Of a stretch of 57,328 nucleotides of DNA, positions 4,071 through 42,323 are shown piece after piece. The notes beneath the pieces were generated by a model, which had not been told where the DNA came from, did no database searches, and saw only the letters and a program-made list of their open reading frames with translations. The DNA comes from Nanobdellota archaeon (lineage in GTDB: Archaea > Nanobdellota > Nanobdellia > Pacearchaeales > GW2011-AR1), in the NCBI GenBank assembly GCA_038045265.1, contig JBBSYL010000036.1, positions 1-57,328 on the forward strand, given 5' to 3'. Position 1 is the first letter of the stretch; each line of letters opens with the position of its first letter. A program made the translations under genes and the position numbers.

Positions 4071-4421
4071 TCAGAAGGCAACTTCTTCTTCAACAACTTT
4101 CGCCTTTTTGCTATTAGCATGTGAATCTGCCTTTCCATCAACAACTTCCATCTTGCCAAATTTTCCAGGAGTCAGTTGCTTCACTCCATTAAATTCAGAA
4201 ACATACCCATTAATTATCCTTATCTTATCTCCTACATTAATTTTATCTATATCGTCATTCCACAAGGTGAGTGTTATCTCTCCACTTGAATCAAAAACTA
4301 CTGCATTACACACTCTCAAATCTTTTCCATACTTATTAAAAGTTCTAATATTATCCTTACTCTTAACCCCAAGTTCAATATCAACTTTGCCCTGACCTGA
4401 TTGTAAATCCTTAACTTCCAT
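4071..4421 (-). CDS. single OB-fold nucleic-acid-binding protein (SSB/RPA-like)
   Basis: The pattern ..VCNAVVFDSSGEITLTLWNDDIDKINVGDKIRIINGYVSEFNGVKQL is typical of archaeal short OB-fold ssDNA-binding proteins. Confidence 0.55.
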   Translation of the reverse strand: MEVKDLQSGQGKVDIELGVKSKDNIRTFNKYGKDLRVCNAVVFDSSGEITLTLWNDDIDKINVGDKIRIINGYVSEFNGVKQLTPGKFGKMEVVDGKADSHANSKKAKVVEEEVAF

Positions 4422-5471: not shown

Positions 5472-8084
5472 ATGCCATACGACATCATAATAGGCCGAGA
5501 CACAACAGACAAAGCAAAATTTGGTGATAGGGGCTTAATTAACCTTGGAAGAGGATATGTAAAAATGGGTCTCAACTCCTCCCTATCTAATAACATAAAG
5601 ATGGATATTGCAAGAAGTCATGTAATTTTAGTTGCGGGCAAGCGTGGAAGCGGAAAGTGTCTTCATGAAGATACCTTAATAACTCTTGCAGATGGCTCAC
5701 AAATCCCAATAAAATACTTAGAAAATAATAAAGAAAAAATCATTTCTTTAAATGAACAACTAAAAATTGAACAATCAGAAAAGTCAGACTTCTTCTCAAG
5801 AATCACAAATAGATTATTTAAAATAAAATTAAGAAGCGGAAAAGAAATAAAACTCACTCCAGAACATCCCCTACTAACTATAAAGGGTTGGAAAGAAGCG
5901 CAATCTCTGACTATTGGAAGCAGGATAGCTACCCCTAGAAAGATTTGTTCTTTCGGAAATAAAGAAATGCCAGAACATGAAATAAAACTATTAGCTTATC
6001 TTATTGCAGAAGGGCATACTAAAAAAGTAGTTTTATTTTCAAATTCAGATGAAAAAATAGTTGAAGAGTTTAGAGAGTCTCTAAACAAATTTGATTCAAC
6101 ACTAAAATTAATAAAAGAAAAAGAAAATCATTACAGGATTTCTTCTCCAGAATGGGAAAATAAAGTTTTAGATAAATCAAAAATCCTATTTAATAAAGAA
6201 AATAGACGCTTTGATAATGGAAGTAAAATTATATTAGAAAAAAGAAGCATAAGAAAATTAATAGAAAGAGAAGAATTATTTAATTTACTGGCACCTCAAA
6301 AATATTTATCTCAGAATATTATGCAATTAAATAAAAAACATCTATCAATATTTTTAAATAGATTATTCAGCTGTGATGGAAGCATATACAAATCAAGTAA
6401 TTATTGGCAAATATCTTATTCTTCCTCTTCAAATAAAATGATAAGACAAGTTCAAAATCTACTATTGAGATTTGGCATATTATCTAAATTAAGAGATAAA
6501 AATATAAACTTAAATGGAAAACAATTCAAAGCGTATGAATTAGTAATTAATTCTCCTAATGCTCTTAAATTTATATACGAAATTGGATTTTTCGGAGTGA
6601 AAGAAGAAAAACAGAAAGTAGCAGAAAAAGAAATCTTATCGAAAAATCAAAATCCTAATATTGATACCATACCTCAAGACATTTGGGAATTGTACAAACC
6701 AAAGAATTGGACAGAAATAGGCAGACAATTAGGATACTCTCATCCGAAAGCAATGAGGGAAAGAATACATTATTCCCCGTCAAGACAAACCCTTATGCAA
6801 ATAGCTCAAGTCGAACAAAGCAATCCTTTAATGCTATTAGCACAATCAGATATTTTTTGGGATGAAATTATATCTATAGAACTACTTGAAGGAGAATTCA
6901 CAGTATATGACATTTGTGTCCCAACTAATCATAATTTTGTTGCTAATGACATAATAGTACATAACAGCTACACACTTGGCGTAATTGCAGAAGAATTATC
7001 AAATCTTCCTTCAGAAACTGCAAAAAACATCTCTTCTTTAATATTTGACACAATGGGAATTTTTTGGACAATGAAATATAAAAACCAGAAAGATGCTGAA
7101 TTGCTCGATGAATGGAATCTTGAATCAAAAGAACTACCAGTAAGAATATTCATCCCATACGGAAAAGCCGAAGATTATCTAAATAAAAGCATCCCATTTG
7201 ACGAAACCTTTGCCTTGAAAGCATCTGAACTAACTTCTGAAGATTGGATTTCCCTATTTAATCTAAAAATAACAAGCCTTGAAGGAGTATTAATAGAAAA
7301 TGTTATCAGTAATTTAGCTGGAACAAATTACACCATAAAACAGGTAATTGAACAAATAAGAACAAATCATTCTGCACATGAAGACACCAAAAAAATAGTT
7401 TCTGCATTATTTGAGGCAACGCAAACTTGGGGAATATTTTCCCTTGACGAAAATGGAACTGAAATAAACAATCTCGTGTCTGCGGGAGTCACAACAGTCA
7501 TAGATGTCTCTGTATACAGTTCTGTCTCATCTTTTAATATTAGAGCATTAGTTTTATCATTAATAACAAAAAAATTATTCAAAACACGTATGGATGCAAG
7601 AAAAAAAGAGGAATTAATTTCATTGCAGCATGGTCAGGATTATCTGTCTTATTCAACAGAAAGAGAAAACCCCTTGGTTTGGATATTTATAGATGAGGCG
7701 CATGAATTTCTTCCAAAAGAAGGAAGCACTCCAGCCACAGAAGCGTTAGTACAATTATTAAGAGAAGGGCGCCAACCGGGAATTTCCTTAGTTCTAGCCA
7801 CCCAACAACCTGGACAAATTCATCATGACGCAATTTCTCAATCAGATATAGTAATAAGCCATAGAGTTACAAGCAAATCAGACCTGGAAGCATTAAATGC
7901 AATAATGCAATCATATGTTTTAGATAGCATTAAACATCAAATGGACGATCTTCCAAGTTTGAAAGGTTCTGCAATAATTCTTGATGACAACTCAGAAAGA
8001 ATCTACCCAGCAAGAATACGCCCTAGATTCACCTGGCACGGCGGAGAAGCACCAACCGCAGTTAAAGGAGATATTAGTTTGTAA
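5472..8084 (+). CDS. HerA/DUF87-type P-loop ATPase interrupted by an intein in the Walker A motif
   Basis: The extein junction reconstitutes GKRGSGK|SYTLG (Walker A). Walker B is VWIFIDEAHEFL, and LREGRQPGISLVLATQQPGQI is a HerA/FtsK-like motif. Confidence 0.85.
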   Translation: MPYDIIIGRDTTDKAKFGDRGLINLGRGYVKMGLNSSLSNNIKMDIARSHVILVAGKRGSGKCLHEDTLITLADGSQIPIKYLENNKEKIISLNEQLKIEQSEKSDFFSRITNRLFKIKLRSGKEIKLTPEHPLLTIKGWKEAQSLTIGSRIATPRKICSFGNKEMPEHEIKLLAYLIAEGHTKKVVLFSNSDEKIVEEFRESLNKFDSTLKLIKEKENHYRISSPEWENKVLDKSKILFNKENRRFDNGSKIILEKRSIRKLIEREELFNLLAPQKYLSQNIMQLNKKHLSIFLNRLFSCDGSIYKSSNYWQISYSSSSNKMIRQVQNLLLRFGILSKLRDKNINLNGKQFKAYELVINSPNALKFIYEIGFFGVKEEKQKVAEKEILSKNQNPNIDTIPQDIWELYKPKNWTEIGRQLGYSHPKAMRERIHYSPSRQTLMQIAQVEQSNPLMLLAQSDIFWDEIISIELLEGEFTVYDICVPTNHNFVANDIIVHNSYTLGVIAEELSNLPSETAKNISSLIFDTMGIFWTMKYKNQKDAELLDEWNLESKELPVRIFIPYGKAEDYLNKSIPFDETFALKASELTSEDWISLFNLKITSLEGVLIENVISNLAGTNYTIKQVIEQIRTNHSAHEDTKKIVSALFEATQTWGIFSLDENGTEINNLVSAGVTTVIDVSVYSSVSSFNIRALVLSLITKKLFKTRMDARKKEELISLQHGQDYLSYSTERENPLVWIFIDEAHEFLPKEGSTPATEALVQLLREGRQPGISLVLATQQPGQIHHDAISQSDIVISHRVTSKSDLEALNAIMQSYVLDSIKHQMDDLPSLKGSAIILDDNSERIYPARIRPRFTWHGGEAPTAVKGDISL
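5658..6965 (+). mobile_element. intein (436 aa) with LAGLIDADG homing-endonuclease domain
   Basis: It starts with Cys (CLHEDTLITLADG, block A) and has block B LTPEHPLL. LAGLIDADG motifs are LLAYLIAEGH and FLNRLFSCDGSI. It ends ...NDIIVHN followed by the +1 Ser. Confidence 0.85.
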
Positions 8085-25670: not shown

Positions 25671-25797
25671 TGATCCCGCCAAGAGTTGAACTTGGGACCT
25701 CTGCCTGTCTGAAATCATCTGATTTCTGAGCACACTCAAAAACCAGAGGTTTTTGATGTTATCAGAGCAGCGCTCTAACCAACTGAGCTACGGGATC
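25671..25797 (-). tRNA. tRNA-Ile(GAU) with a ~53-nt intron at the canonical 37/38 position
   Basis: Minus-strand fold: acceptor GATCCCG/CGGGATC, D arm GCTC/GAGC, anticodon stem CTGCT/GGCAG, loop CTGATAA, T arm CCAAG-TTCAACT-CTTGG, discriminator A, no encoded CCA. The mature length is 74 nt. Confidence 0.8.
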
Positions 25798-26753: not shown

Positions 26754-27029
26754 ATGGAATTTGATAAAAATGGGAAGATAATTTTGCCTGATTCTCCAAA
26801 AGCAAAAGGCAAAAAAATAGCTTACTCTGAAAAAATAAATAACCGCGAAAGCATTTCCATCATAAATGAAGAGGCAGATAACACTTCCCCAGTTGTCCAA
26901 ATAGAATGCCCAAAATGCGAACATAAAAAGGCGTATTTCTGGACCACACAAACTCGTTCAAGCGACGAGTCAGAAACCAAATTCTACAAGTGTATAAAAT
27001 GTAAACACACCTGGCGTGTTTATAGATAA
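26754..27029 (+). CDS. tfs: TFS/TFIIS-type C-terminal zinc-ribbon protein (TFS-like, lacks N-terminal Zn ribbon)
   Basis: CPKCEHKKAYFWTTQTRSSDESETKFYKCIKCKHTWR is a TFIIS C-ribbon with the acidic DE hairpin. There are no Cys pairs in the N-terminal 45 aa. Confidence 0.7.
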   Translation: MEFDKNGKIILPDSPKAKGKKIAYSEKINNRESISIINEEADNTSPVVQIECPKCEHKKAYFWTTQTRSSDESETKFYKCIKCKHTWRVYR

Positions 27030-27515: not shown

Positions 27516-27603
27516 GGCCTCGTAGCTCAGCCTGGCTAGAGCACTGGACTCTTAAAATCTTGTAGAAATCCAGGTGTCGCGGGTTCAAATCCCGTCGGGG
27601 CCA
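27516..27603 (+). tRNA. tRNA-Lys(CUU) with a 13-nt intron; integration target (attL) of the DGR island
   Basis: Acceptor GGCCTCG/CGGGGCC, D arm GCTC/GAGC, anticodon stem CTGGA/TCCAG, loop CTCTTAA, T arm GCGGG-TTCAAAT-CCCGT, discriminator A. Confidence 0.85.
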
Positions 27604-27605
27604 TT
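27589..27605 (+). repeat. attL core (tRNA-Lys 3' end)
   Basis: 17/17 identity with 34598-34614. Confidence 0.8.
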
Positions 27606-27619
27606 GTTCAAAACCGCAC

Positions 27620-27630
27620 GCTTTAAATAG
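27620..27630 (+). promoter_or_regulatory. TATA-box-like promoter element upstream of integrase
   Basis: gctttaaatag lies ~30 nt upstream of the ATG at 27652. Confidence 0.4.
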
Positions 27631-27651
27631 TTCCAATTCGGGCAGGAAACT

Positions 27652-28818
27652 ATGAATGAAAAGATAGACATTCACTTTGAAGATGTGGGAAGAAGGAAAG
27701 AATCCATTAAAAAATGGAAAATGCCTTCAGAAGTAAAGAGAGATATGCTTCTTTTCCTTAATGATTTAGAATTAGGAAAGGTAAACAAGGGAAAGAAAAT
27801 AAATCCTAGAACTCAATTAAAATATATCAACACGTTAAAAGCTCCTCTTGAATACATAAACAAACCTCTTACTAAAATAACCCTTAAAGACTTAGAAGAG
27901 TTTGAAAAGGATTTATCTTCTGGTATATTGAAAAGCAAAAAGAAAAAGCCATATTCTCATGCCGTAAAGGCAGACATTAGAATTGCATTAAGAATACTAT
28001 TAAGATGGAAATTGGGGCTAGAAAAGGCAAATAAGCTTACTGATTGGTTTGATTGCAGAGATATTGACACAACACCAGACTATTTGAGTGAGAAAGAGAT
28101 AGAGAAGTTGTATAAGAGTTGTAAAAGCCTTAAAGAGAGATTTCTTATTGCTGTTCTATTTGACGCAGGTGTAAGAATTGAGGAATTTCTCAATATAAGA
28201 TACGAAGATGTTTCCTTACCTGTAAAAGAAGCTAATTTCGTTAAAATTACAATAAAGAATGAATATAGTAAGACATTAGGAAGAAATATATCTCTTTATT
28301 GGAAGCACTCATCAGAGGCAGTAAGAGACTTTATAGAACAAAGAGTTAGAGAAGGGATAAGAACAGACAATGCAGTCTATGAAGACACTTATTCTGCAAT
28401 TCGTTCATTCTTGAGAAGGTTTGGAATTAGAGTATTAAACAAGCCAGTGCATCCTCATTTATTTAGACATAGCTCTGCAACATATTATGCAAATAAACTC
28501 AATAGGCAAGAGCTATGCATGAGATATGGATGGAAGTTTAGCTCTGATATGCCTGACATCTATATTAGTAGAGCAGGAATGGAAAATAAAGAACTTGATG
28601 AGAAATTTACTCAAACTGAATTAGGAGATTTGAAATATAAACTTGAAAAGCAAGAACAACAAAATAATCTTATGAAAGAAAGACAAGAAAGACTTGAGGA
28701 AGAGTTGAATAGAAGAAGAAAATTTGACCCATTCTTAGACAAGCTAATGCAACAACAACCAGTAATACATCAAATAAAGAAGCTATTAGACAATGGAAAG
28801 AAATTAGTGATAGAATAA
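27652..28818 (+). CDS. int: tyrosine recombinase / integrase
   Basis: DAGVRIEEFLNIRYEDV (Arg I box), HPHLFRHSSATYYA (H-x-x-R) and DIYISRAG (candidate catalytic Tyr). It is intact and lies next to the att site. Confidence 0.9.
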   Translation: MNEKIDIHFEDVGRRKESIKKWKMPSEVKRDMLLFLNDLELGKVNKGKKINPRTQLKYINTLKAPLEYINKPLTKITLKDLEEFEKDLSSGILKSKKKKPYSHAVKADIRIALRILLRWKLGLEKANKLTDWFDCRDIDTTPDYLSEKEIEKLYKSCKSLKERFLIAVLFDAGVRIEEFLNIRYEDVSLPVKEANFVKITIKNEYSKTLGRNISLYWKHSSEAVRDFIEQRVREGIRTDNAVYEDTYSAIRSFLRRFGIRVLNKPVHPHLFRHSSATYYANKLNRQELCMRYGWKFSSDMPDIYISRAGMENKELDEKFTQTELGDLKYKLEKQEQQNNLMKERQERLEEELNRRRKFDPFLDKLMQQQPVIHQIKKLLDNGKKLVIE

Positions 28819-28844
28819 ACATAAAGTGGTGATTGGAGAACAAA

Positions 28845-29567
28845 ATGCCAATCAAACAAAAACAAAAGAAATCGAGCAACCGAAGCTCAATCCAGAGGAT
28901 GAGCTTTCGGGAAAGAATTGATTATGAAGAAGATAAAAAGAATAGATACTATAAAAGAACAGGAAAACAACAAAGAGTAAGAATAAATCTTGATTATGCC
29001 ATGGGATTTTTCAAAGCTAATGAATTAAATGTGCATGAAAAGGCATATTTGCTCAACAAAAAATATCAAATTATATATCGAACTGATTTAACAGGCAAGA
29101 AAAATTACTTCTTAGTGAAGCCGAGAGGAAATGAATCGGCAGAACATTTCCTTCTCGTAAAATTAATAGAAGAATATCTAAAACCTCATTTTAAAGTCTG
29201 GCTCTATCACTCTGTGAAGCCAGACGCGGAGATAAAATTCAAGAATAGAATGATTGCTATGGAAATTGAAACTGGAAAGCTTTTGAGGAACAATAAAAAA
29301 GAATTTCTTGAAAAAGTGGAGAGACTTAATGATAATTATGGGAAAGATTGGTTTTTCATTGTCACAAATAGAAATCTATTAAAGAAATATAGAAAATATG
29401 GTAAAACATACACAAGAAAGTCTGTATTGAAGAGATTAAATTATTACATAAATAATAAACCTAAAGAAAGTATAAGCATGAATTATGAAAACAAACCTAT
29501 AAAACGTGAAAATAAGCTTCCAGAAAGGAAAACTGGTGCTTATTGCTTTAATATTTGGGGAAAATAA
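28845..29567 (+). CDS. hypothetical basic protein of the island
   Basis: An ORF from the ATG at 28845, with a Lys/Arg-rich N-terminus. ..SAEHFLLV..KPDAEIKF..IAMEIETGK is loosely reminiscent of a PD-(D/E)xK nuclease core, but this is not secure. Confidence 0.45.
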   Translation: MPIKQKQKKSSNRSSIQRMSFRERIDYEEDKKNRYYKRTGKQQRVRINLDYAMGFFKANELNVHEKAYLLNKKYQIIYRTDLTGKKNYFLVKPRGNESAEHFLLVKLIEEYLKPHFKVWLYHSVKPDAEIKFKNRMIAMEIETGKLLRNNKKEFLEKVERLNDNYGKDWFFIVTNRNLLKKYRKYGKTYTRKSVLKRLNYYINNKPKESISMNYENKPIKRENKLPERKTGAYCFNIWGK

Positions 29568-29720
29568 GTATGCAAAAAACTAAGTTAGTATGTCAATTTT
29601 CACACAAAAAATCAACATACGAAATGCTCAATTTATTACACATAGATAAAAATCGTCTCCGACGATAGAATTTCCGATACGGTCAGCACAGGAATATAGA
29701 TATCTATTAAAATGTGTATT

Positions 29721-30768
29721 TTACACCTTTTCTAAAAGAGCATCAATTATCTTCATTTTAACTGCTTCCCTTAACTTATACGTCTTAGCCCATTTAGCAT
29801 AAGCCTGCCAACCTTGATAAACCTCCATTATAGATTCAAAACTCTTTTCGCCCTTTTTGTATAATTCTATTTTATTAATCATACTTCTTATATTTCTCTT
29901 TCTCAATAATCTACAATGGTAAAAATTCCTAAATCCAACAAAATCAATGCCTCTTTTTATTGGAATAATTCTTGACTTATTAGGATGTAATTCTATTTTT
30001 AACTTTTCTTTTAGAAAAGTATCTATTTTATCCTTCCATTCTTGAAGCTGTTTAGCAGACTTATGTAAAATTACAAAGTCATCAACATATCTTATGTAAT
30101 ACTTTGCTTTCAGGGTGTGCTTGACAAAATAATCCAGCTCATTCAAATATACATTAGCAAAGAATTGAGAGGTATAGTTGCCTAAAGGCATTCCTTTTGC
30201 TCGTTCGCCCCCCCCCCCCGAACGAGCTTACTGTATTATTCAATATTTGTCTGATAAGCCAAATCACGTCATTATCTTTAATCTTCTTACTTAGAATATT
30301 TATTAAAATTTCATGGTCAACGCTAGGAAAATAGTGTCTTACATCTGCCTTAAGGCAAAAACCACTTTCAGTATAAGGATTTGAAACTTTTCTTATAAAC
30401 CTATCAAATCTCTTAAGTGCAAACAATGTTCCTTTTTTTATTTGATTTGCACATGAATCATATATAAACTGCTTTTCAAAGAACTTCTTTATGACATTAA
30501 TTATAGCATGATGAACTACTCTATCTCTGAAATCAGATTTGCTTATCACTCTTGTTTTTGGGTCTCTCAAAACAAAGGTTTCCAAAGGCAAGGGCTTGTA
30601 TGTTTTATAAGTTAGTTCTCTATGCAGATTTAATAAATTAAGCTCTAAATTTTTCTCAAATTCCATAACGTCTTCATTTGAAGTTTTACCTTCTCTTGCT
30701 TTTCTCCAAGCAAGAGTTAAGTTTCCCATTGAAGATAGCCAATAATAAAGACCATTGTAAGTTTTCAT
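29721..30768 (-). CDS. DGR reverse transcriptase, reading frame interrupted by a G12 tract (one G fewer gives an intact 348-aa protein)
   Basis: The start MKTYNGLYYWLSSMGNLTLAWRKAREGK.., DPKTRVISKSDFRDRVVHHAI, the DGR-type motif 4 GMPLGNYTSQFFANVYL (xGxxxSQ), and YIRYVDDFVIL (YxDD). The two ORF-track pieces (30154-30873 and 29721-30191) join at the homopolymer. The total of 1048 nt equals 3n+1. Confidence 0.9.
30199..30227 (-). repeat. homopolymer G12 (sense strand; C12 on + at 30208-30219) flanked by a perfect 8-9 bp inverted repeat inside the RT gene
   Basis: The sense strand reads GCTCGTTC-G12-CGAACGAGC. This is the frameshift site of the RT. Confidence 0.9.
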
Positions 30769-30797
30769 ATTATAATTCCTAGTATGCACGTACTGGG

Positions 30798-30881
30798 CTA
30801 TTCGACCGTTCTCGTTAGAGTTAGCAAGATTGTCATTATTGGCATTCAAGTTGAGGTTACTATTGAGGTACAACCTCGAAA
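30798..30881 (-). repeat. DGR template repeat (TR), 84 bp
   Basis: It is homologous to 32150-32233 and 31269-31352. It has 28 A on the sense strand, mostly in AAY codons. It lies 29 nt upstream of the RT start and is not coding; the ORF-track TTG-start extension of the RT ORF covers it. Confidence 0.9.
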
Positions 30882-31242
30882 GGTATAGCCTTCTGCTTTA
30901 CGTACTCACATTCACATCTGTAAATTTCATCTCATTATTGCAGATGTAAATGCTCGTCACCACCACTTCATATTTCATTTTTCAATTACTTAATGTCGCA
31001 GTTGAATTTTATAATCTTCTCTTACGAGAAGACCCTAAGCACAAGGCGTGTAGCCCAGCCATGATTTGTGCATGACTAGGACTGTTAAAAGAAAATAATG
31101 CTTTTTATTTAATTAGATTATAGAATATGCAATAATCAAACAATATAGATAAAAAAATAGATTATATTATCAATTTGATTTTAAAGTTCGCATTTTATAA
31201 TTTTTCATTTTTAATTATTATGTACCAAAAAATTTGACGCAA

Positions 31243-31257
31243 AGTGGCTTCGGCACT
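31243..31257 (-). promoter_or_regulatory. GC-rich hairpin 11 nt downstream of VR2 (sense AGTGCCGAAGCCACT, one C-C mismatch)
   Basis: It is near-identical to the hairpin downstream of VR1 and absent downstream of the TR. Confidence 0.55.
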
Positions 31258-32001
31258 TTAGAAGAGAACTACCCGACCGTCCTCGACAGAGTAAGCAAGA
31301 CCGACATTATCGGCATACAAGTCGAGGCTACTACTGAGGCACAACCTCGAAAGTCCAAGATTATCTTCATTAGCTTCTCCCTGCGATGCAGTCCATAATG
31401 TTCTTGTTCCTTGTCCGAGCTTAGAAGGCAAACCAGTTTCTAATGAAACATCTTCATTTCTAAATACTCCTGTTGGTTTAGCAAGAATTGGAGAATGTCT
31501 TACTTGAGTATTTGGATTATAAACTAATCCTAAACCATAACTTCCTTTATCAAAATTCTTTAAACCATATTTGACAAGAACTGCTGGAAGCTTTTTAACA
31601 TCTCTTAATTGAGCAGGTAATTGTCCAAACATATCCATAGCCATTTCATGATGTCTTCCTGAAAAGTCTAATACAACTCCTAAATCAACATAATGATTTC
31701 CTCGTATTCCTATTGTATCTCCATCATTAAGAGTTCTTTGAATATCTTCTGGAAGTCCAACTCTTCTTTCTGGAACTAATGATTGAACTACTGGTAAAAC
31801 TAAAGAATTTGAACCTCTGACTGTAGGAACTTTATTAACTTCTGCTAAGTTTAAAACTTTAAGATTGGGATTATCAGCATAATCTCTTTTAACCAAGGCA
31901 TTAAAATCTTCTACAAATCTTGGAGCATTATCTCCTTGAAGAGTGTAAGGTATTACAAATGGCTGTTTTACTGCTGGCTTAAAATCATATTTATCTGTCA
32001 T
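31258..32001 (-). CDS. DGR target protein 2 (VR at extreme C-terminus)
   Basis: A paralog of the upstream gene. The C-terminus ..LSRLCLSSSLDLYADNVGLAYSVEDGRVVLF is encoded by VR2. It starts 2 nt after the stop of target 1. Confidence 0.85.
   Translation of the reverse strand: MTDKYDFKPAVKQPFVIPYTLQGDNAPRFVEDFNALVKRDYADNPNLKVLNLAEVNKVPTVRGSNSLVLPVVQSLVPERRVGLPEDIQRTLNDGDTIGIRGNHYVDLGVVLDFSGRHHEMAMDMFGQLPAQLRDVKKLPAVLVKYGLKNFDKGSYGLGLVYNPNTQVRHSPILAKPTGVFRNEDVSLETGLPSKLGQGTRTLWTASQGEANEDNLGLSRLCLSSSLDLYADNVGLAYSVEDGRVVLF
31269..31352 (-). repeat. DGR variable repeat VR2
   Basis: There are 15 differences from the TR over 84 bp, all at TR adenines on the sense strand. Confidence 0.9.
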
Positions 32002-32003
32002 AA

Positions 32004-32888
32004 TTATTTCCCTCTCCCTGTAGGCATATTAACCATAGATTGTGTAAACCATTTATCGAGTTCGCTTTTTCTTGCTTCTACTTGTTCTCTTAATTGAGCT
32101 TGATATTGTCTAATAAAATCGGCGCCAGTGGCTTCGCCACTAACCAAAACTACCCGACCGTCCTCGTTAGAGTTAGCAAGATTGTCATCATTGGCACTCA
32201 AGTTGAGGTCACTAACGAGGTACAACCCCGAAATTCCATTATCTCTTGCAAAAAATTGTCTTTTTCCATTTTTATCAAATTTAGGTAATCCTAATTCATC
32301 AACATCTGTAAACTGTTTTTCATTATTCTTTCCAGAAAGTCTTTCATCCTGTGCAACTGCAAAATCAGGTCTTGCTACAACCTTTAATCCATATCCTGCT
32401 CTGTCTTCTTCAGAAGGCACGACATCAAATCCTTGCACCATGAATGGATATTTTATACTTCCAGCCTTACTTTCTGCTAATTCAGTAACTTGTTTTAATA
32501 TTCCTCTATTCTGTTCTCTATTGTCTTTGTTACTTTGAACAACAAATGCAGGAGTATCAGAATAATGATTATCTTTAACCATAGAAAGAACTTGAGGGTT
32601 GCTTAAATCAGCCAATGTAACAACACGCATATTGAAAGGTCTTACCATATTATCCAAACGAGATGCTGAAAATGTATTTGAACCAGTCATATATGCAGGA
32701 TTATCTTTTCCAGCTTGAACCAGTGTGAGAACATTAAGGTATTGATTATCTCCAAATCTTTCTTTAATATCTCTTCTAAATGCTTCATACAATGCAGGAG
32801 CAAATTTATCTCCTTCTGCGAATGCTGTTAAAATAGTTGGCACTCTCCAATTAGGTTGCCCAAGATTTAGTTTACTTTCTTTAGCCAT
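32004..32888 (-). CDS. DGR target protein 1 (internal VR followed by ~47-aa tail)
   Basis: ..GISGLYLVSDLNLSANDDNLANSNEDGRVVLVSG.. is encoded by VR1. There is no signal peptide or TM helix. Confidence 0.85.
   Translation of the reverse strand: MAKESKLNLGQPNWRVPTILTAFAEGDKFAPALYEAFRRDIKERFGDNQYLNVLTLVQAGKDNPAYMTGSNTFSASRLDNMVRPFNMRVVTLADLSNPQVLSMVKDNHYSDTPAFVVQSNKDNREQNRGILKQVTELAESKAGSIKYPFMVQGFDVVPSEEDRAGYGLKVVARPDFAVAQDERLSGKNNEKQFTDVDELGLPKFDKNGKRQFFARDNGISGLYLVSDLNLSANDDNLANSNEDGRVVLVSGEATGADFIRQYQAQLREQVEARKSELDKWFTQSMVNMPTGRGK
32127..32141 (-). promoter_or_regulatory. GC-rich hairpin 8 nt downstream of VR1 (sense AGTGGC-GAA-GCCACT, 6-bp stem)
   Basis: A perfect inverted repeat just 3' of the IMH-like end of VR1. 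It lies within the coding sequence of target 1. Confidence 0.6.
32150..32233 (-). repeat. DGR variable repeat VR1
   Basis: There are 9 differences from the TR over 84 bp, all at TR adenines on the sense strand. Confidence 0.9.
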
Positions 32889-32907
32889 GCCCTTTCTTAT
32901 TTTAGAC

Positions 32908-32919
32908 TATTTATAAACC
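32908..32919 (-). promoter_or_regulatory. TATA-box-like promoter element of the DGR target operon
   Basis: The minus-strand gGTTTATAAATAg starts 30 nt upstream of the ATG at 32888. Confidence 0.45.
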
Positions 32920-33217
32920 TTTCTATTATGTTACTACTTCAAAGTTAATTATGTAATATGGGACGAATATTCTTTATTGATATAAAAGAAAGAAAAGTTT
33001 GTAAATGTAAGTAAGAATATTATGCTATTTTGTACTAAAACTTACAGAATCTGTATAGAATGATACAAAATAGCTAAGTTTACAGATTACTGAAAGACGA
33101 TTATGTCATTCAAACCATAATATTATGGTATAAACACTATAATGAAAAGTGTCACAAATAATGTATCACTTTAGAAAGGTTTAATTCTGTTATAGTGTGC
33201 TTTGCTGATGCACAACA

Positions 33218-33261
33218 TCTTCTATCCTCAATAGAAGATAGTTTCTATTGTCAATAGAAAC
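33218..33261. promoter_or_regulatory. two adjacent 8-bp-arm palindromes (candidate operators) abutting the ATPase promoter
   Basis: TCTTCTAT-cctca-ATAGAAGA (33218-33238) and GTTTCTAT-tgtca-ATAGAAAC (33241-33261), directly followed by cctttaaatat. Confidence 0.5.
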
Positions 33262-33282
33262 CTTTAAATATATGTTTTATAT

Positions 33283-34503
33283 ATGATTAGCATGGTAGAA
33301 GAAGAAATAATAAAAGAAGTTATAACTTCACAGAGAGAATTATTGAATAAATCAGAAACTGGAACTCCGAGAGAGGCAGAAAAAGAGATTAGTATATTAG
33401 ATTCGTTTGCCCTAATAATAACTGGCGTGAGACGATGTGGCAAGAGTACATTTTTAAATCAGCTAATAAAAAAGCAGAAAAAAGCTTATTATCTTAATTT
33501 TGAAGACCCTCGACTAGAAGGATTTGAATTAGCAGATTTTAATAAAACTGAAATAATTTTTAAAAAGCTTTTTGGAGAAGGAGGAGTTTATTTTTTTGAT
33601 GAAATACAAAATATAGCTAAATGGGAAAAATTCATAAGGTACTTGGTTGATAAAAAGGAGAAAGTAGTTATAAGTGGCTCAAATGCCTCTATTTTGAGCA
33701 GAGAACTAGGGACAAAACTTACGGGAAGACATCTTAGAGCAGAAATGTTTCCTTTTTCCTTCAAGGAGTTTTTAGACTTAGAAAATGCCGAACCATCAAT
33801 AAATAGCTTTGATAAATATTGCCAGAAGGGAGGATTCCCAGAATATCTAAAGAAAGACAATCCAACGATATTAAATGAATTATTATCTGATATTGTAATG
33901 AAGGATATTGCAATAAGATTTGGAATAAAAAATACCAAAATATTAAATAAAATAGCAATCTTCCTCATAGGTAGCTCTGGAAAAGAGTTTTCTTATAATT
34001 CAATAAAGAATATGCTAAACATTAAATCTGTACAAAGTGTAATAAACTATATATCATTTTTTGAAGATGCCTATCTTATCTTTACTATTCCTCTCTTTAA
34101 CTATTCATACAAAAAACAGCAAGTAAATCCTAAAAAAGTTTACTCGATAGATACGGGCTTTTCTGTCTACAATACTCCCTCCTTTTCAGAAGATAAGGGG
34201 AGAATTCTAGAGAACGTTGTATTCCTTGCCTTGAGGAGAAAACATAAAGATATATTTTATTTTAAAGAAAAAAATGAATGTGACTTTTTAATAAAGGAAA
34301 GGGAAAAAATTATTCAAGCTATCCAAGTCTGCTATAATTTTAATAATGACAATAAGGAAAGAGAAATTAATGGGTTGATGGAAGCAATGAAGAAGTTTAA
34401 ATTGAAAGAAGGTTTAATTCTAACGTATAATCAAACTGATGAGTTTAATGTAGAAGGATATAAAATTAAAGCTATTCCTGTCTGGAAATGGCTTCTCTTA
34501 TGA
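33283..34503 (+). CDS. AAA-family ATPase (DUF4143-type archaeal ATPase)
   Basis: Walker A GVRRCGKST and Walker B VYFFDEIQ, with a C-terminal region like the DUF4143 family. The alternative start at 33292 fits the 30-nt TATA spacing better. Confidence 0.75.
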   Translation: MISMVEEEIIKEVITSQRELLNKSETGTPREAEKEISILDSFALIITGVRRCGKSTFLNQLIKKQKKAYYLNFEDPRLEGFELADFNKTEIIFKKLFGEGGVYFFDEIQNIAKWEKFIRYLVDKKEKVVISGSNASILSRELGTKLTGRHLRAEMFPFSFKEFLDLENAEPSINSFDKYCQKGGFPEYLKKDNPTILNELLSDIVMKDIAIRFGIKNTKILNKIAIFLIGSSGKEFSYNSIKNMLNIKSVQSVINYISFFEDAYLIFTIPLFNYSYKKQQVNPKKVYSIDTGFSVYNTPSFSEDKGRILENVVFLALRRKHKDIFYFKEKNECDFLIKEREKIIQAIQVCYNFNNDNKEREINGLMEAMKKFKLKEGLILTYNQTDEFNVEGYKIKAIPVWKWLLL

Positions 34504-34597
34504 ACGAAAGATTATTATACTAATGTGTATTAGAAATAATACGAAGAGGATTAGTGCCTTTATTCAAGATAAAGACAAGTGATGCGGTTCTGACTAC

Positions 34598-34614
34598 ATC
34601 CCGTCGGGGCCATT
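34598..34614 (+). repeat. attR core (copy of tRNA-Lys 3' end)
   Basis: 17/17 identity with 27589-27605. Confidence 0.8.
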
Positions 34615-42185: not shown

Positions 42186-42294
42186 TTACTGCCCAAATGG
42201 TAAAAATCTAACCTATTTTTACTGCCCAAATGGTAAAATATAATAACCCCCTCCTCGATAAATAGGACATATCTTTACTGCCCAAATGGTAAAA
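42186..42294 (+). repeat. three 20-bp direct repeats ttactgcccaaatggtaaaa upstream of the Fic gene
   Basis: Perfect copies at 42186-42205, 42219-42238 and 42275-42294. The last abuts the TATA-like atatataaa, 30 nt upstream of the ATG at 42324. Confidence 0.85.
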
Positions 42295-42323
42295 TATATA
42301 AAGGGTAAAATACAACATATTAC

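Follow-up and report, generated by a model that had tools for sequence, protein, structure and literature searches.

A stretch of 57,328 nucleotides from a Nanobdellota archaeon (GenBank assembly GCA_038045265.1, contig JBBSYL010000036.1, positions 1 to 57,328; hereafter the window) carries a complete diversity-generating retroelement (DGR) of the DPANN type, comprising a reverse transcriptase (RT), initiation of mutagenic homing sites (IMH and IMH*), hairpins and an RT-16 RNA. With a probability of roughly 0.8, two adjacent genes of the window, T1 and T2, encode the two variable proteins of this one DPANN-archaeal DGR, which is of the Nanoarchaeota/Pacearchaeota/Woesearchaeota type, and each protein is built on a globular domain of approximately 230 residues, most probably a heavily embellished C-type lectin-like (CLec-like) domain. 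Read 5' to 3' on the minus strand, the region from 29.7 to 32.9 kb contained T1, T2, a 376-nt non-coding stretch, the template repeat (TR) and the RT gene. The component features, including the variable repeats (VRs) within the target open reading frames (ORFs), were as follows.

32004..32888, minus strand: T1, ORF for the subfamily A variable protein, 294 aa
32150..32233, minus strand: VR1, 84 nt, residues 220-246 of T1 (SGLYLVSDLNLSANDDNLANSNEDGRV), 9 mismatches to the TR
32150-32165, minus strand: IMH of VR1, located by sequence
32127..32141, minus strand: hairpin 1, AGTGGC-GAA-GCCACT, located by sequence 8 nt past VR1, inside the T1 ORF, where it encodes S-G-E-A-T
31258..32001, minus strand: T2, ORF for the subfamily B variable protein, 247 aa, without a C-terminal tail
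31269..31352, minus strand: VR2, 84 nt, 15 mismatches to the TR
31269-31284, minus strand: IMH of VR2, located by sequence
31241..31259, minus strand: hairpin 2, AAAGTGCC-GAA-GCCACTTT, with one stem mismatch, just 3' of VR2, -4.4 kcal/mol
30880..31080, minus strand: RT-16 RNA (Rfam RF03019), a structured non-coding RNA identified by covariance match, abutting the 5' end of the TR with a 2-nt overlap
30798..30881, minus strand: TR, with 28 adenines and 10 AAY codons, from the repeat search and base-by-base comparison
30798-30813, minus strand: IMH* of the TR, located by sequence
29721..30768, minus strand: DGR reverse transcriptase, in two frames in the window, with RT motifs DRVVHH, PLGNYTSQFFAN and YVDD

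T1 and T2 were confirmed as genuine DGR targets. A repeat search identified three 84-nt copies, corresponding to the TR, VR1 and VR2, and base-by-base comparison revealed that every mismatch fell at a TR adenine (9 of 9 in VR1 and 15 of 15 in VR2), with none at the 56 non-adenine positions. The absence of non-adenine mismatches argues that the last homing into VR1 and VR2 was recent. The first-pass annotation of this region, which was made from the sequence, had described two tandem DGR targets of 294 and 247 aa lying 2 nt apart, with VR2 more diverged from the TR than VR1 (15 and 9 differences) and 25 TR adenines outside the fixed IMH-like end. The ORF coordinates, in which T2 starts 2 nt 3' of the T1 stop codon, the mismatch counts and a recount of the adenines (28, less the three fixed IMH positions) were all in agreement. 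Its placement of VR1 as internal and followed by a probably helical tail, and of VR2 as terminal with the T2 stop codon 8 nt past the repeat, likewise matched the coordinates and the helix predicted at residues 254-286 of T1 by AlphaFold2.

At their 3' ends VR1 and VR2 had three differences from the TR in common (the VRs read GAGGACGGTCGGGTAG where the TR has GAGAACGGTCGAATAG); both VRs carried the IMH GACGGTCGGGTAG and the TR carried the IMH* AACGGTCGAATAG. For hairpin 1, folding predicted a stem of 9 bp closed by a loop of 3 nt (-13.3 kcal/mol), and hairpin 2 overlapped the final two bases of the T2 stop codon. The RT-16 match was full-length, with a score of 84.7 bits (gathering threshold, 50). 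RT-16 was found in 16 of 19 related loci, across all of the target families sampled and including L017, a locus without an RT, and it ended at or a few nucleotides from the start of the TR in 10 of the 10 loci, among these 19, in which a TR was mapped. Since it abuts the TR in DGRs of all sampled target families, RT-16 probably constitutes the structured 5' portion of the DPANN DGR RNA. The sequence PLGNYTSQFFAN of the window RT matched the (I/L)GxxxSQ motif of the DGR clade. The 80 closest genomic relatives of this RT came almost entirely from DPANN archaea, including Nanoarchaeota SCGC AAA011-G17 (65% identity); a few of these records were titled as bacteria or Methanosarcinales and look mis-binned.

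Indirect evidence of diversification was obtained from the closest relative of T1, the protein P0002. The two proteins were 86% identical outside the VR and agreed at 12 of 12 VR scaffold positions and at 2 of 15 adenine-coded positions, a contrast between scaffold and adenine-coded positions that was highly significant (Fisher P = 3.6e-9). Judged from these two sequences, such confinement of hypervariation to adenine-coded positions is the footprint of DGR action. Another T1 homologue, P0022, contained in its C-terminus NSNGNGRIAQNIF, which is TR/IMH*-like instead of VR/IMH-like and suggests VR/TR mis-assembly or recombination in its contig.

By analogy with the DGR of the Bordetella phage, an RNA consisting of the RT-16 structure and the TR would be reverse-transcribed by the adjacent RT with misincorporation opposite adenines, and the resulting cDNA would replace either VR, steered by the IMH, with its three differences from the IMH*, and by the GAA-loop hairpin downstream of each VR. 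The 10 AAY codons and 5 other adenine-containing codons would allow approximately 1e13 or more variants of each protein, with no stop codons created. In both proteins the VR would encode the last beta-hairpin and, after a loop, the final strand, with an invariant Leu/Ser/Ala scaffold alternating with the variable residues.

T1 and T2 were 25% identical over 263 aa (BLASTP, E = 1e-7), and comparison of the subfamily A and subfamily B profiles with hhalign gave a probability of 100% (E = 1.6e-41). These values uphold the earlier proposal that the two proteins are paralogous, and on sequence comparison they are members of two subfamilies, A and B, of one superfamily. Homologues numbered 27 for T1 and 66 for T2, none of which had a Pfam domain; those named by source were annotated as 'hypothetical protein' of Nanoarchaeota, Pacearchaeota or Woesearchaeota (Nanoarchaeota and Pacearchaeota in the T1 set). 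A profile search covering 1.84 billion cluster representatives placed at least 800 clusters at 50% identity in the superfamily (E <= 1e-3), of which 558 reached E <= 1e-10. Nearly all of the full-length members among the 150 listed matches were 230-300 aa in length.

Neither protein matched any Pfam family at E values up to 10, FGE-sulfatase and DUF1566 included, and neither matched PHROGs. NCBIfam provided no usable match (the lone entry, at E = 0.099, was far below the cut-off), and searches of PDB sequences with profiles of 28 and 138 sequences found none apart from a single chance match to VgrG (E = 0.87). Nine longer family members, scanned against Pfam with E values of up to 0.01, showed no such domain and no informative fusion. 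The family was therefore unrecognised, as had been claimed, by Pfam, PHROG, NCBIfam and PDB-sequence profile searches alike. The obscurity that this claim implied was not borne out, since the family comprises at least 800 clusters and is one of at least four sequence-unrelated target families of the same DPANN DGR clade. From its members and their sources the T1/T2 family is, on this evidence, large, unnamed, DPANN-restricted and distinct from the archaeal target AvpA.

The ORFs upstream of the 80 RT genes belonged to at least four families of 230-290 aa, namely the T1/T2 family, an AvpA-like family and two others, and hhalign comparison of the T1/T2 family with the three other target families gave probabilities of 1.2%, 8% and 0.2%. 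Members of the T1/T2 family were located upstream of the RT at 22 of these 80 loci (24 ORFs). A survey of homologues for association with DGR RTs, which the first-pass annotation had proposed, found a TR, VR and RT at L004, L007, L008, L010, L011, L013 and L018, and at L004 and L007 a single family member accompanied the TR and RT. At L001, L016 and L019, family members without DGR parts nearby had kept a VR-like sequence. In a set of 138 diverse members, the VR scaffold G-L-S-x-L-x-L-x-x-x-L-x-L-x-S-x-x-x-x-L-A-x-S-x-x-x-G-R-V-V was among the best-conserved parts of the protein, and the adenine-encoded VR columns of these representatives carried D, G, N, Y, S or C.

Two further observations were made in these surveys. 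L017 contained a VR (5651-5736), an RT-16 RNA and a TR (5933-6018) with 14 adenine mismatches and no RT within 5 kb; an identical protein was present in 62 collection blocks, with glycosyltransferase and radical-SAM genes as neighbours, and the cassette looks like a fossil or one served in trans. In 7 of the 80 RT loci (L020, at 3-1604; L037, at 32-1831; L044, L045, L056, L092 and L093), the gene directly upstream of the DGR target encoded a conserved protein of approximately 590 aa without a Pfam domain; the targets concerned belonged to at least two families. No VR/TR repeat was found within its own ORF in those seven loci, and it had no homologue in the window.

Structure prediction, which had also been suggested, produced confident AlphaFold2 models of both T1 (predicted local distance difference test score, pLDDT, 85.4; predicted template modelling score, pTM, 0.76) and T2 (pLDDT 94.9, pTM 0.89). 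Each was modelled as one alpha/beta domain that opens with a short strand and a long helix and in which the VR forms the closing beta-hairpin, a loop and the last strand; the IMH-encoded GRVV(L)V was the final strand in both, the place that the corresponding segment occupies in AvpA, Mtd and TvpA. The globular domain of T1 spanned approximately residues 20-250 and was followed by one long C-terminal helix (254-286). When the models were compared with the PDB using Foldseek, the great majority of the top 50 matches of both were C-type lectin domains, including those of CD23, SP-A, MBP-C, MGL, CLEC5A, LOX-1, KLRG1, NKG2D and ASGR2, with target-normalised template modelling (TM) scores of 0.40-0.50 over 185-228 alignment columns. 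A fold search of BFVD yielded no significant match, and viral C-type lectins were among its top matches.

Because C-type lectins dominated both Foldseek lists, although below significance, a CLec-like fold is probable, and an embellished form of it is the most likely description of these models. The fold had previously been called uncertain. That caution was justified in so far as no match was significant and the fold is not proven; the question was nevertheless not open-ended, as both confident models point to C-type lectins. No confident match to a known DGR target family emerged from Pfam, from PDB profiles or from hhalign comparison with the AvpA-like targets. The alternation of invariant and variable residues in the predicted strands would imply a variable, exposed, ligand-binding face.

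No signal peptide or transmembrane helix was detected in T1 or T2, in which the 19-residue Kyte-Doolittle mean peaked at 0.63 and 0.97, respectively. Judged from hydropathy and sequence, neither protein had an N-terminal hydrophobic stretch or an N-terminal Cys. Each target ORF opened at the first start codon past the upstream stop codon, and there is thus no hidden longer N-terminus in either. T1 contained no Cys and the only Cys of T2 lay within VR2, and so neither has a lipobox. Hydropathy and Cys positions accordingly agreed with the earlier statement that signal peptide, lipobox and transmembrane helix were all lacking. The description of the proteins as apparently cytoplasmic fared less evenly: the lack of export signals stood, whereas its standing as a new anomaly did not, as that lack has already been published for archaeal targets (Paul 2015, PMC4372165; Roux 2021, PMC8144416) and represents the known state of the class. 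T1 and T2 may be either cytoplasmic or surface-located.

The arrangement of two VRs in adjacent genes that share one TR recurred in several loci. Tandem pairs of a subfamily A and a subfamily B gene, 0-8 nt apart, were present in the window and at L008, L010, L013/L035, L018 and L061, with an overlap of 1 nt at L018. The order was A then B at L008, L018 and L061 and B then A at L010 and L013; the pairs at L011 and L012 were partly resolved, and those at L062 and L071 were apparently B and B. Whatever the order or subfamily, one tailed member (with a helical C-terminus of approximately 45 aa) and one tailless member were found in all five of the pairs that could be scored. Tandem pairs also occurred in three other DPANN target families. 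Since the translationally close pair of these two old subfamilies recurs, T1 and T2 probably act together, and the recurrence of two paralogues hints that variable proteins may function in heteromeric form. A more speculative and rather doubtful extension is that T1 and T2 form an intracellular heteromeric pair, one tailed and one tailless and each with a hypervariable face, that, carried on a mobile element, would serve not as a surface adhesin but in the cytoplasm, as a recognition module diversified by the DGR and directed, for example, at molecules of viruses or the host, with hypermutation perhaps toggled by a change between 11 and 12 G residues in the RT gene.

Several observations weigh against the interpretation of T1 and T2 as CLec-like variable proteins of a working DGR. 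Neither model had a significant Foldseek match (best E = 0.27 and 0.6, probability no greater than 0.35), and AvpA (5IOO), Mtd and TvpA were absent from the top 50 matches of both. The window RT was broken into ORFs of 239 aa and 156 aa; VR1, VR2 and the TR were identical in four assemblies from at least three sequencing runs, with no consensus-level variation; and no Avd-like accessory gene was recognised. Finally, the joint function of the two proteins was inferred from conserved adjacency alone.

The first of these points could be explained if the scaffold were a genuinely new, non-CLec fold and the lectin matches a superficial alpha/beta resemblance. All of the Foldseek E values exceeded 0.05, no target-normalised TM score was above 0.50, the solved CLec proteins of DGRs (5IOO and others) were missing from the top 50, and there was no sequence or profile similarity to the AvpA-like targets (hhalign 1.2%) or to any PDB chain. 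Given that C-type lectins nonetheless dominated the matches of both models, we consider a new fold somewhat unlikely and prefer the CLec-like scaffold.

The state of the RT raises the possibility that the cassette is an inactive relic, in which the RT is a pseudogene, the VRs are frozen and T1 and T2 are ordinary, non-varying proteins. Consistent with this possibility are the frameshift in the window RT, the identity of VR1 and VR2 in the four assemblies and the existence of fossils within the family, such as L017 (VR, TR and RT-16 with no RT) and L016, L019 and L001, which have no nearby TR or RT. The break coincided with a tract of 12 G residues (G12, 30208-30219), which lies as a loop between the arms of a perfect inverted repeat of 9 bp (30199-30227) just upstream of RT motif 3. 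However, the same locus in a further assembly (L100, from ERR3858114) was identical over 5,245 nt except for a tract of 11 G residues (G11) and encoded an intact 348-aa RVT_1 RT; a functional RT allele therefore exists. The tract was G12 in L101 (ERR3858113), and in L102 (SRR32696705) the contig ended within it. The frameshift is either a homopolymer error or a real length polymorphism. The lack of any non-adenine mismatch over 56 positions in either VR, which argues for recent homing, and the integrity of all of the cis elements also speak against a relic, which we regard as unlikely.

Neither of two other conceivable causes of the RT interruption, an archaeal bulge-helix-bulge intron or programmed ribosomal frameshifting, was retained, because the 11-G allele directly restores the frame.

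Comparable tracts (at least eight G residues or at least five AG repeats, within 120 nt upstream of motif 3) were present in 8 of 88 related RT genes. Elsewhere such tracts numbered 12 in 564 kb, corresponding to an approximately 36-fold enrichment (Poisson P of about 1e-10) among loci that are not phylogenetically independent. Three of the eight tracts were out of frame: those of the window (G12), L008 (G11, 4244-4258) and L004 ((AG)6, 7601-7630). The slippage-prone loop could toggle the RT off and on by phase variation, or the differences could be homopolymer sequencing errors. No published account of such an RT tract was found in the literature searched. The length-variable G tract hints that mutagenesis may be switchable.

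The DGR was located within a putative integrated element, the features of which were as follows.

27589..34614, unstranded: putative 7.0-kb integrated element with the whole DGR, with a 17-nt exact direct repeat at its ends
27652-28818, inside the element: integrase, identified by Pfam
28833-29567, inside the element: ORF244
33283-34503, inside the element: AAA_14/DUF4143 ATPase, identified by Pfam

The 17-nt repeat, ATCCCGTCGGGGCCATT, corresponded to a tRNA 3' end at 27589-27605 and recurred at 34598-34614; the number of matches expected by chance was 0. Since it brackets the integrase, ORF244, the DGR and the ATPase, the DGR of the window appears to ride on a 7-kb tRNA-integrated element. 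Such a tRNA-integrated context was not seen in related loci. The archaeal nature of the window was apparent from a TFS-like zinc-ribbon protein (26754-27029, recognised by eye) and intron-containing tRNAs. Rfam identified tRNAs of 127 nt at 25671-25797 on the minus strand and 88 nt at 27516-27603 on the plus strand, both presumably intron-containing; ARAGORN missed the former and called the latter 'tRNA-Stop (tta)'. The sequence TTACTGCCCAAATGGTAAAA occurred three times without mismatch at 42186-42298, at spacings of 33 and 56 nt and inside a larger pair of 39-nt repeats; these copies may be operator or iteron-like sites.

Among the closest known systems are AvpA (PDB 5IOO) and the AvpA-like variable proteins of DGRs from Nanoarchaeota and Woesearchaeota (Handa et al. 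2016, PMC5006420). AvpA has one CLec domain, which begins at residue 8, and behind it an extension of 46 aa. It resembled the window proteins in its size, single domain and short C-terminal VR, in which the IMH encodes the last strand, in having a GAA-loop hairpin inside the ORF and then a tail of approximately 46 aa, with the pentapeptide SAEGT in place of the SGEAT of T1, and in the absence of a signal peptide or transmembrane helix. AvpA and the T1/T2 pair were each closest, weakly, to animal C-type lectins. The RT clade was also the same, as the RT beside the AvpA-like target of SCGC AAA011-G17 was 65% identical to that of the window; the sole PDB match of this target was 5IOO, at E = 0.53. 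In contrast to AvpA, in which variable positions occur only after beta4', those of T1 and T2 began at the penultimate beta-hairpin and alternated with Leu/Ser, and T2 had no tail. The shared architecture (a single-domain protein of approximately 250 aa, with some 27 VR residues close to the C-terminus and an extension of about 46 aa, helical or disordered, that includes the hairpin pentapeptide) and RT clade might suggest that T1 and T2 are divergent members of the AvpA family, but this is very improbable, since no profile matched 5IOO even at E values as high as 10, the hhalign probability against the AvpA-like cluster was 1.2% and the motifs GXXVVVYAH, HPXXXPFXG and RFXGV were absent from the family consensus.

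The nanoarchaeal DGRs of DUSEL4 (PMC4372165) provided a second comparison. The targets of nanoarchaeal DGRs are orphan proteins that fall into several unrelated groups (Paul 2015, PMC4372165), and the features reported for these DGRs are a target gene that contains a GRA triloop hairpin and GG versus AA in the IMH and IMH* (PMC4372165). The corresponding sequences were TCGGGT/TCGAAT in the window and TGGGGT/TGGAAT in DUSEL4; in both, a GRA triloop hairpin lay within the target gene and the targets were orphans without a predictable fold. Unlike the DUSEL4 elements, the window used one TR for two tandem paralogues. The T1/T2 family was not found beside the one DUSEL4 RT locus that was retrieved (L023).

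In common with Mtd of Bordetella phage BPP-1 and TvpA of Treponema denticola, T1 and T2 had a C-terminal VR on a probable CLec-type scaffold, an AAY-rich TR and a GRVV-like invariant IMH end. They differed in that the VR was about half as long and gave no FGE-sulfatase or DUF1566 signal in Pfam. Whereas Mtd belongs to a phage tail fibre and TvpA is a lipoprotein, T1 and T2 carry no export signal. A probable lectin-like scaffold in a family distinct from AvpA would extend the rule that DGRs vary CLec folds.

New CLec variants have been predicted among archaeal DGR targets, which have been noted to be without a transmembrane helix or signal peptide (PMC8144416, PMC5006420). In the survey of Roux 2021 (PMC8144416), archaeal clade-5 targets typically had no transmembrane helix or other recognisable domain, their non-membrane status 'remains to be established', and uncharacterised VR domains in archaea were predicted to be new CLec variants. 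DPANN DGR targets are the main hypervariable protein class of which the fold, location and ligands are still to be learned, and T1 and T2 represent a well-modelled pair for experiments. The treatment of clade 5 in that survey included no family-level or structural description; to it the present analysis adds the models, the size of the family, the A/B pairing and the link to RT-16.

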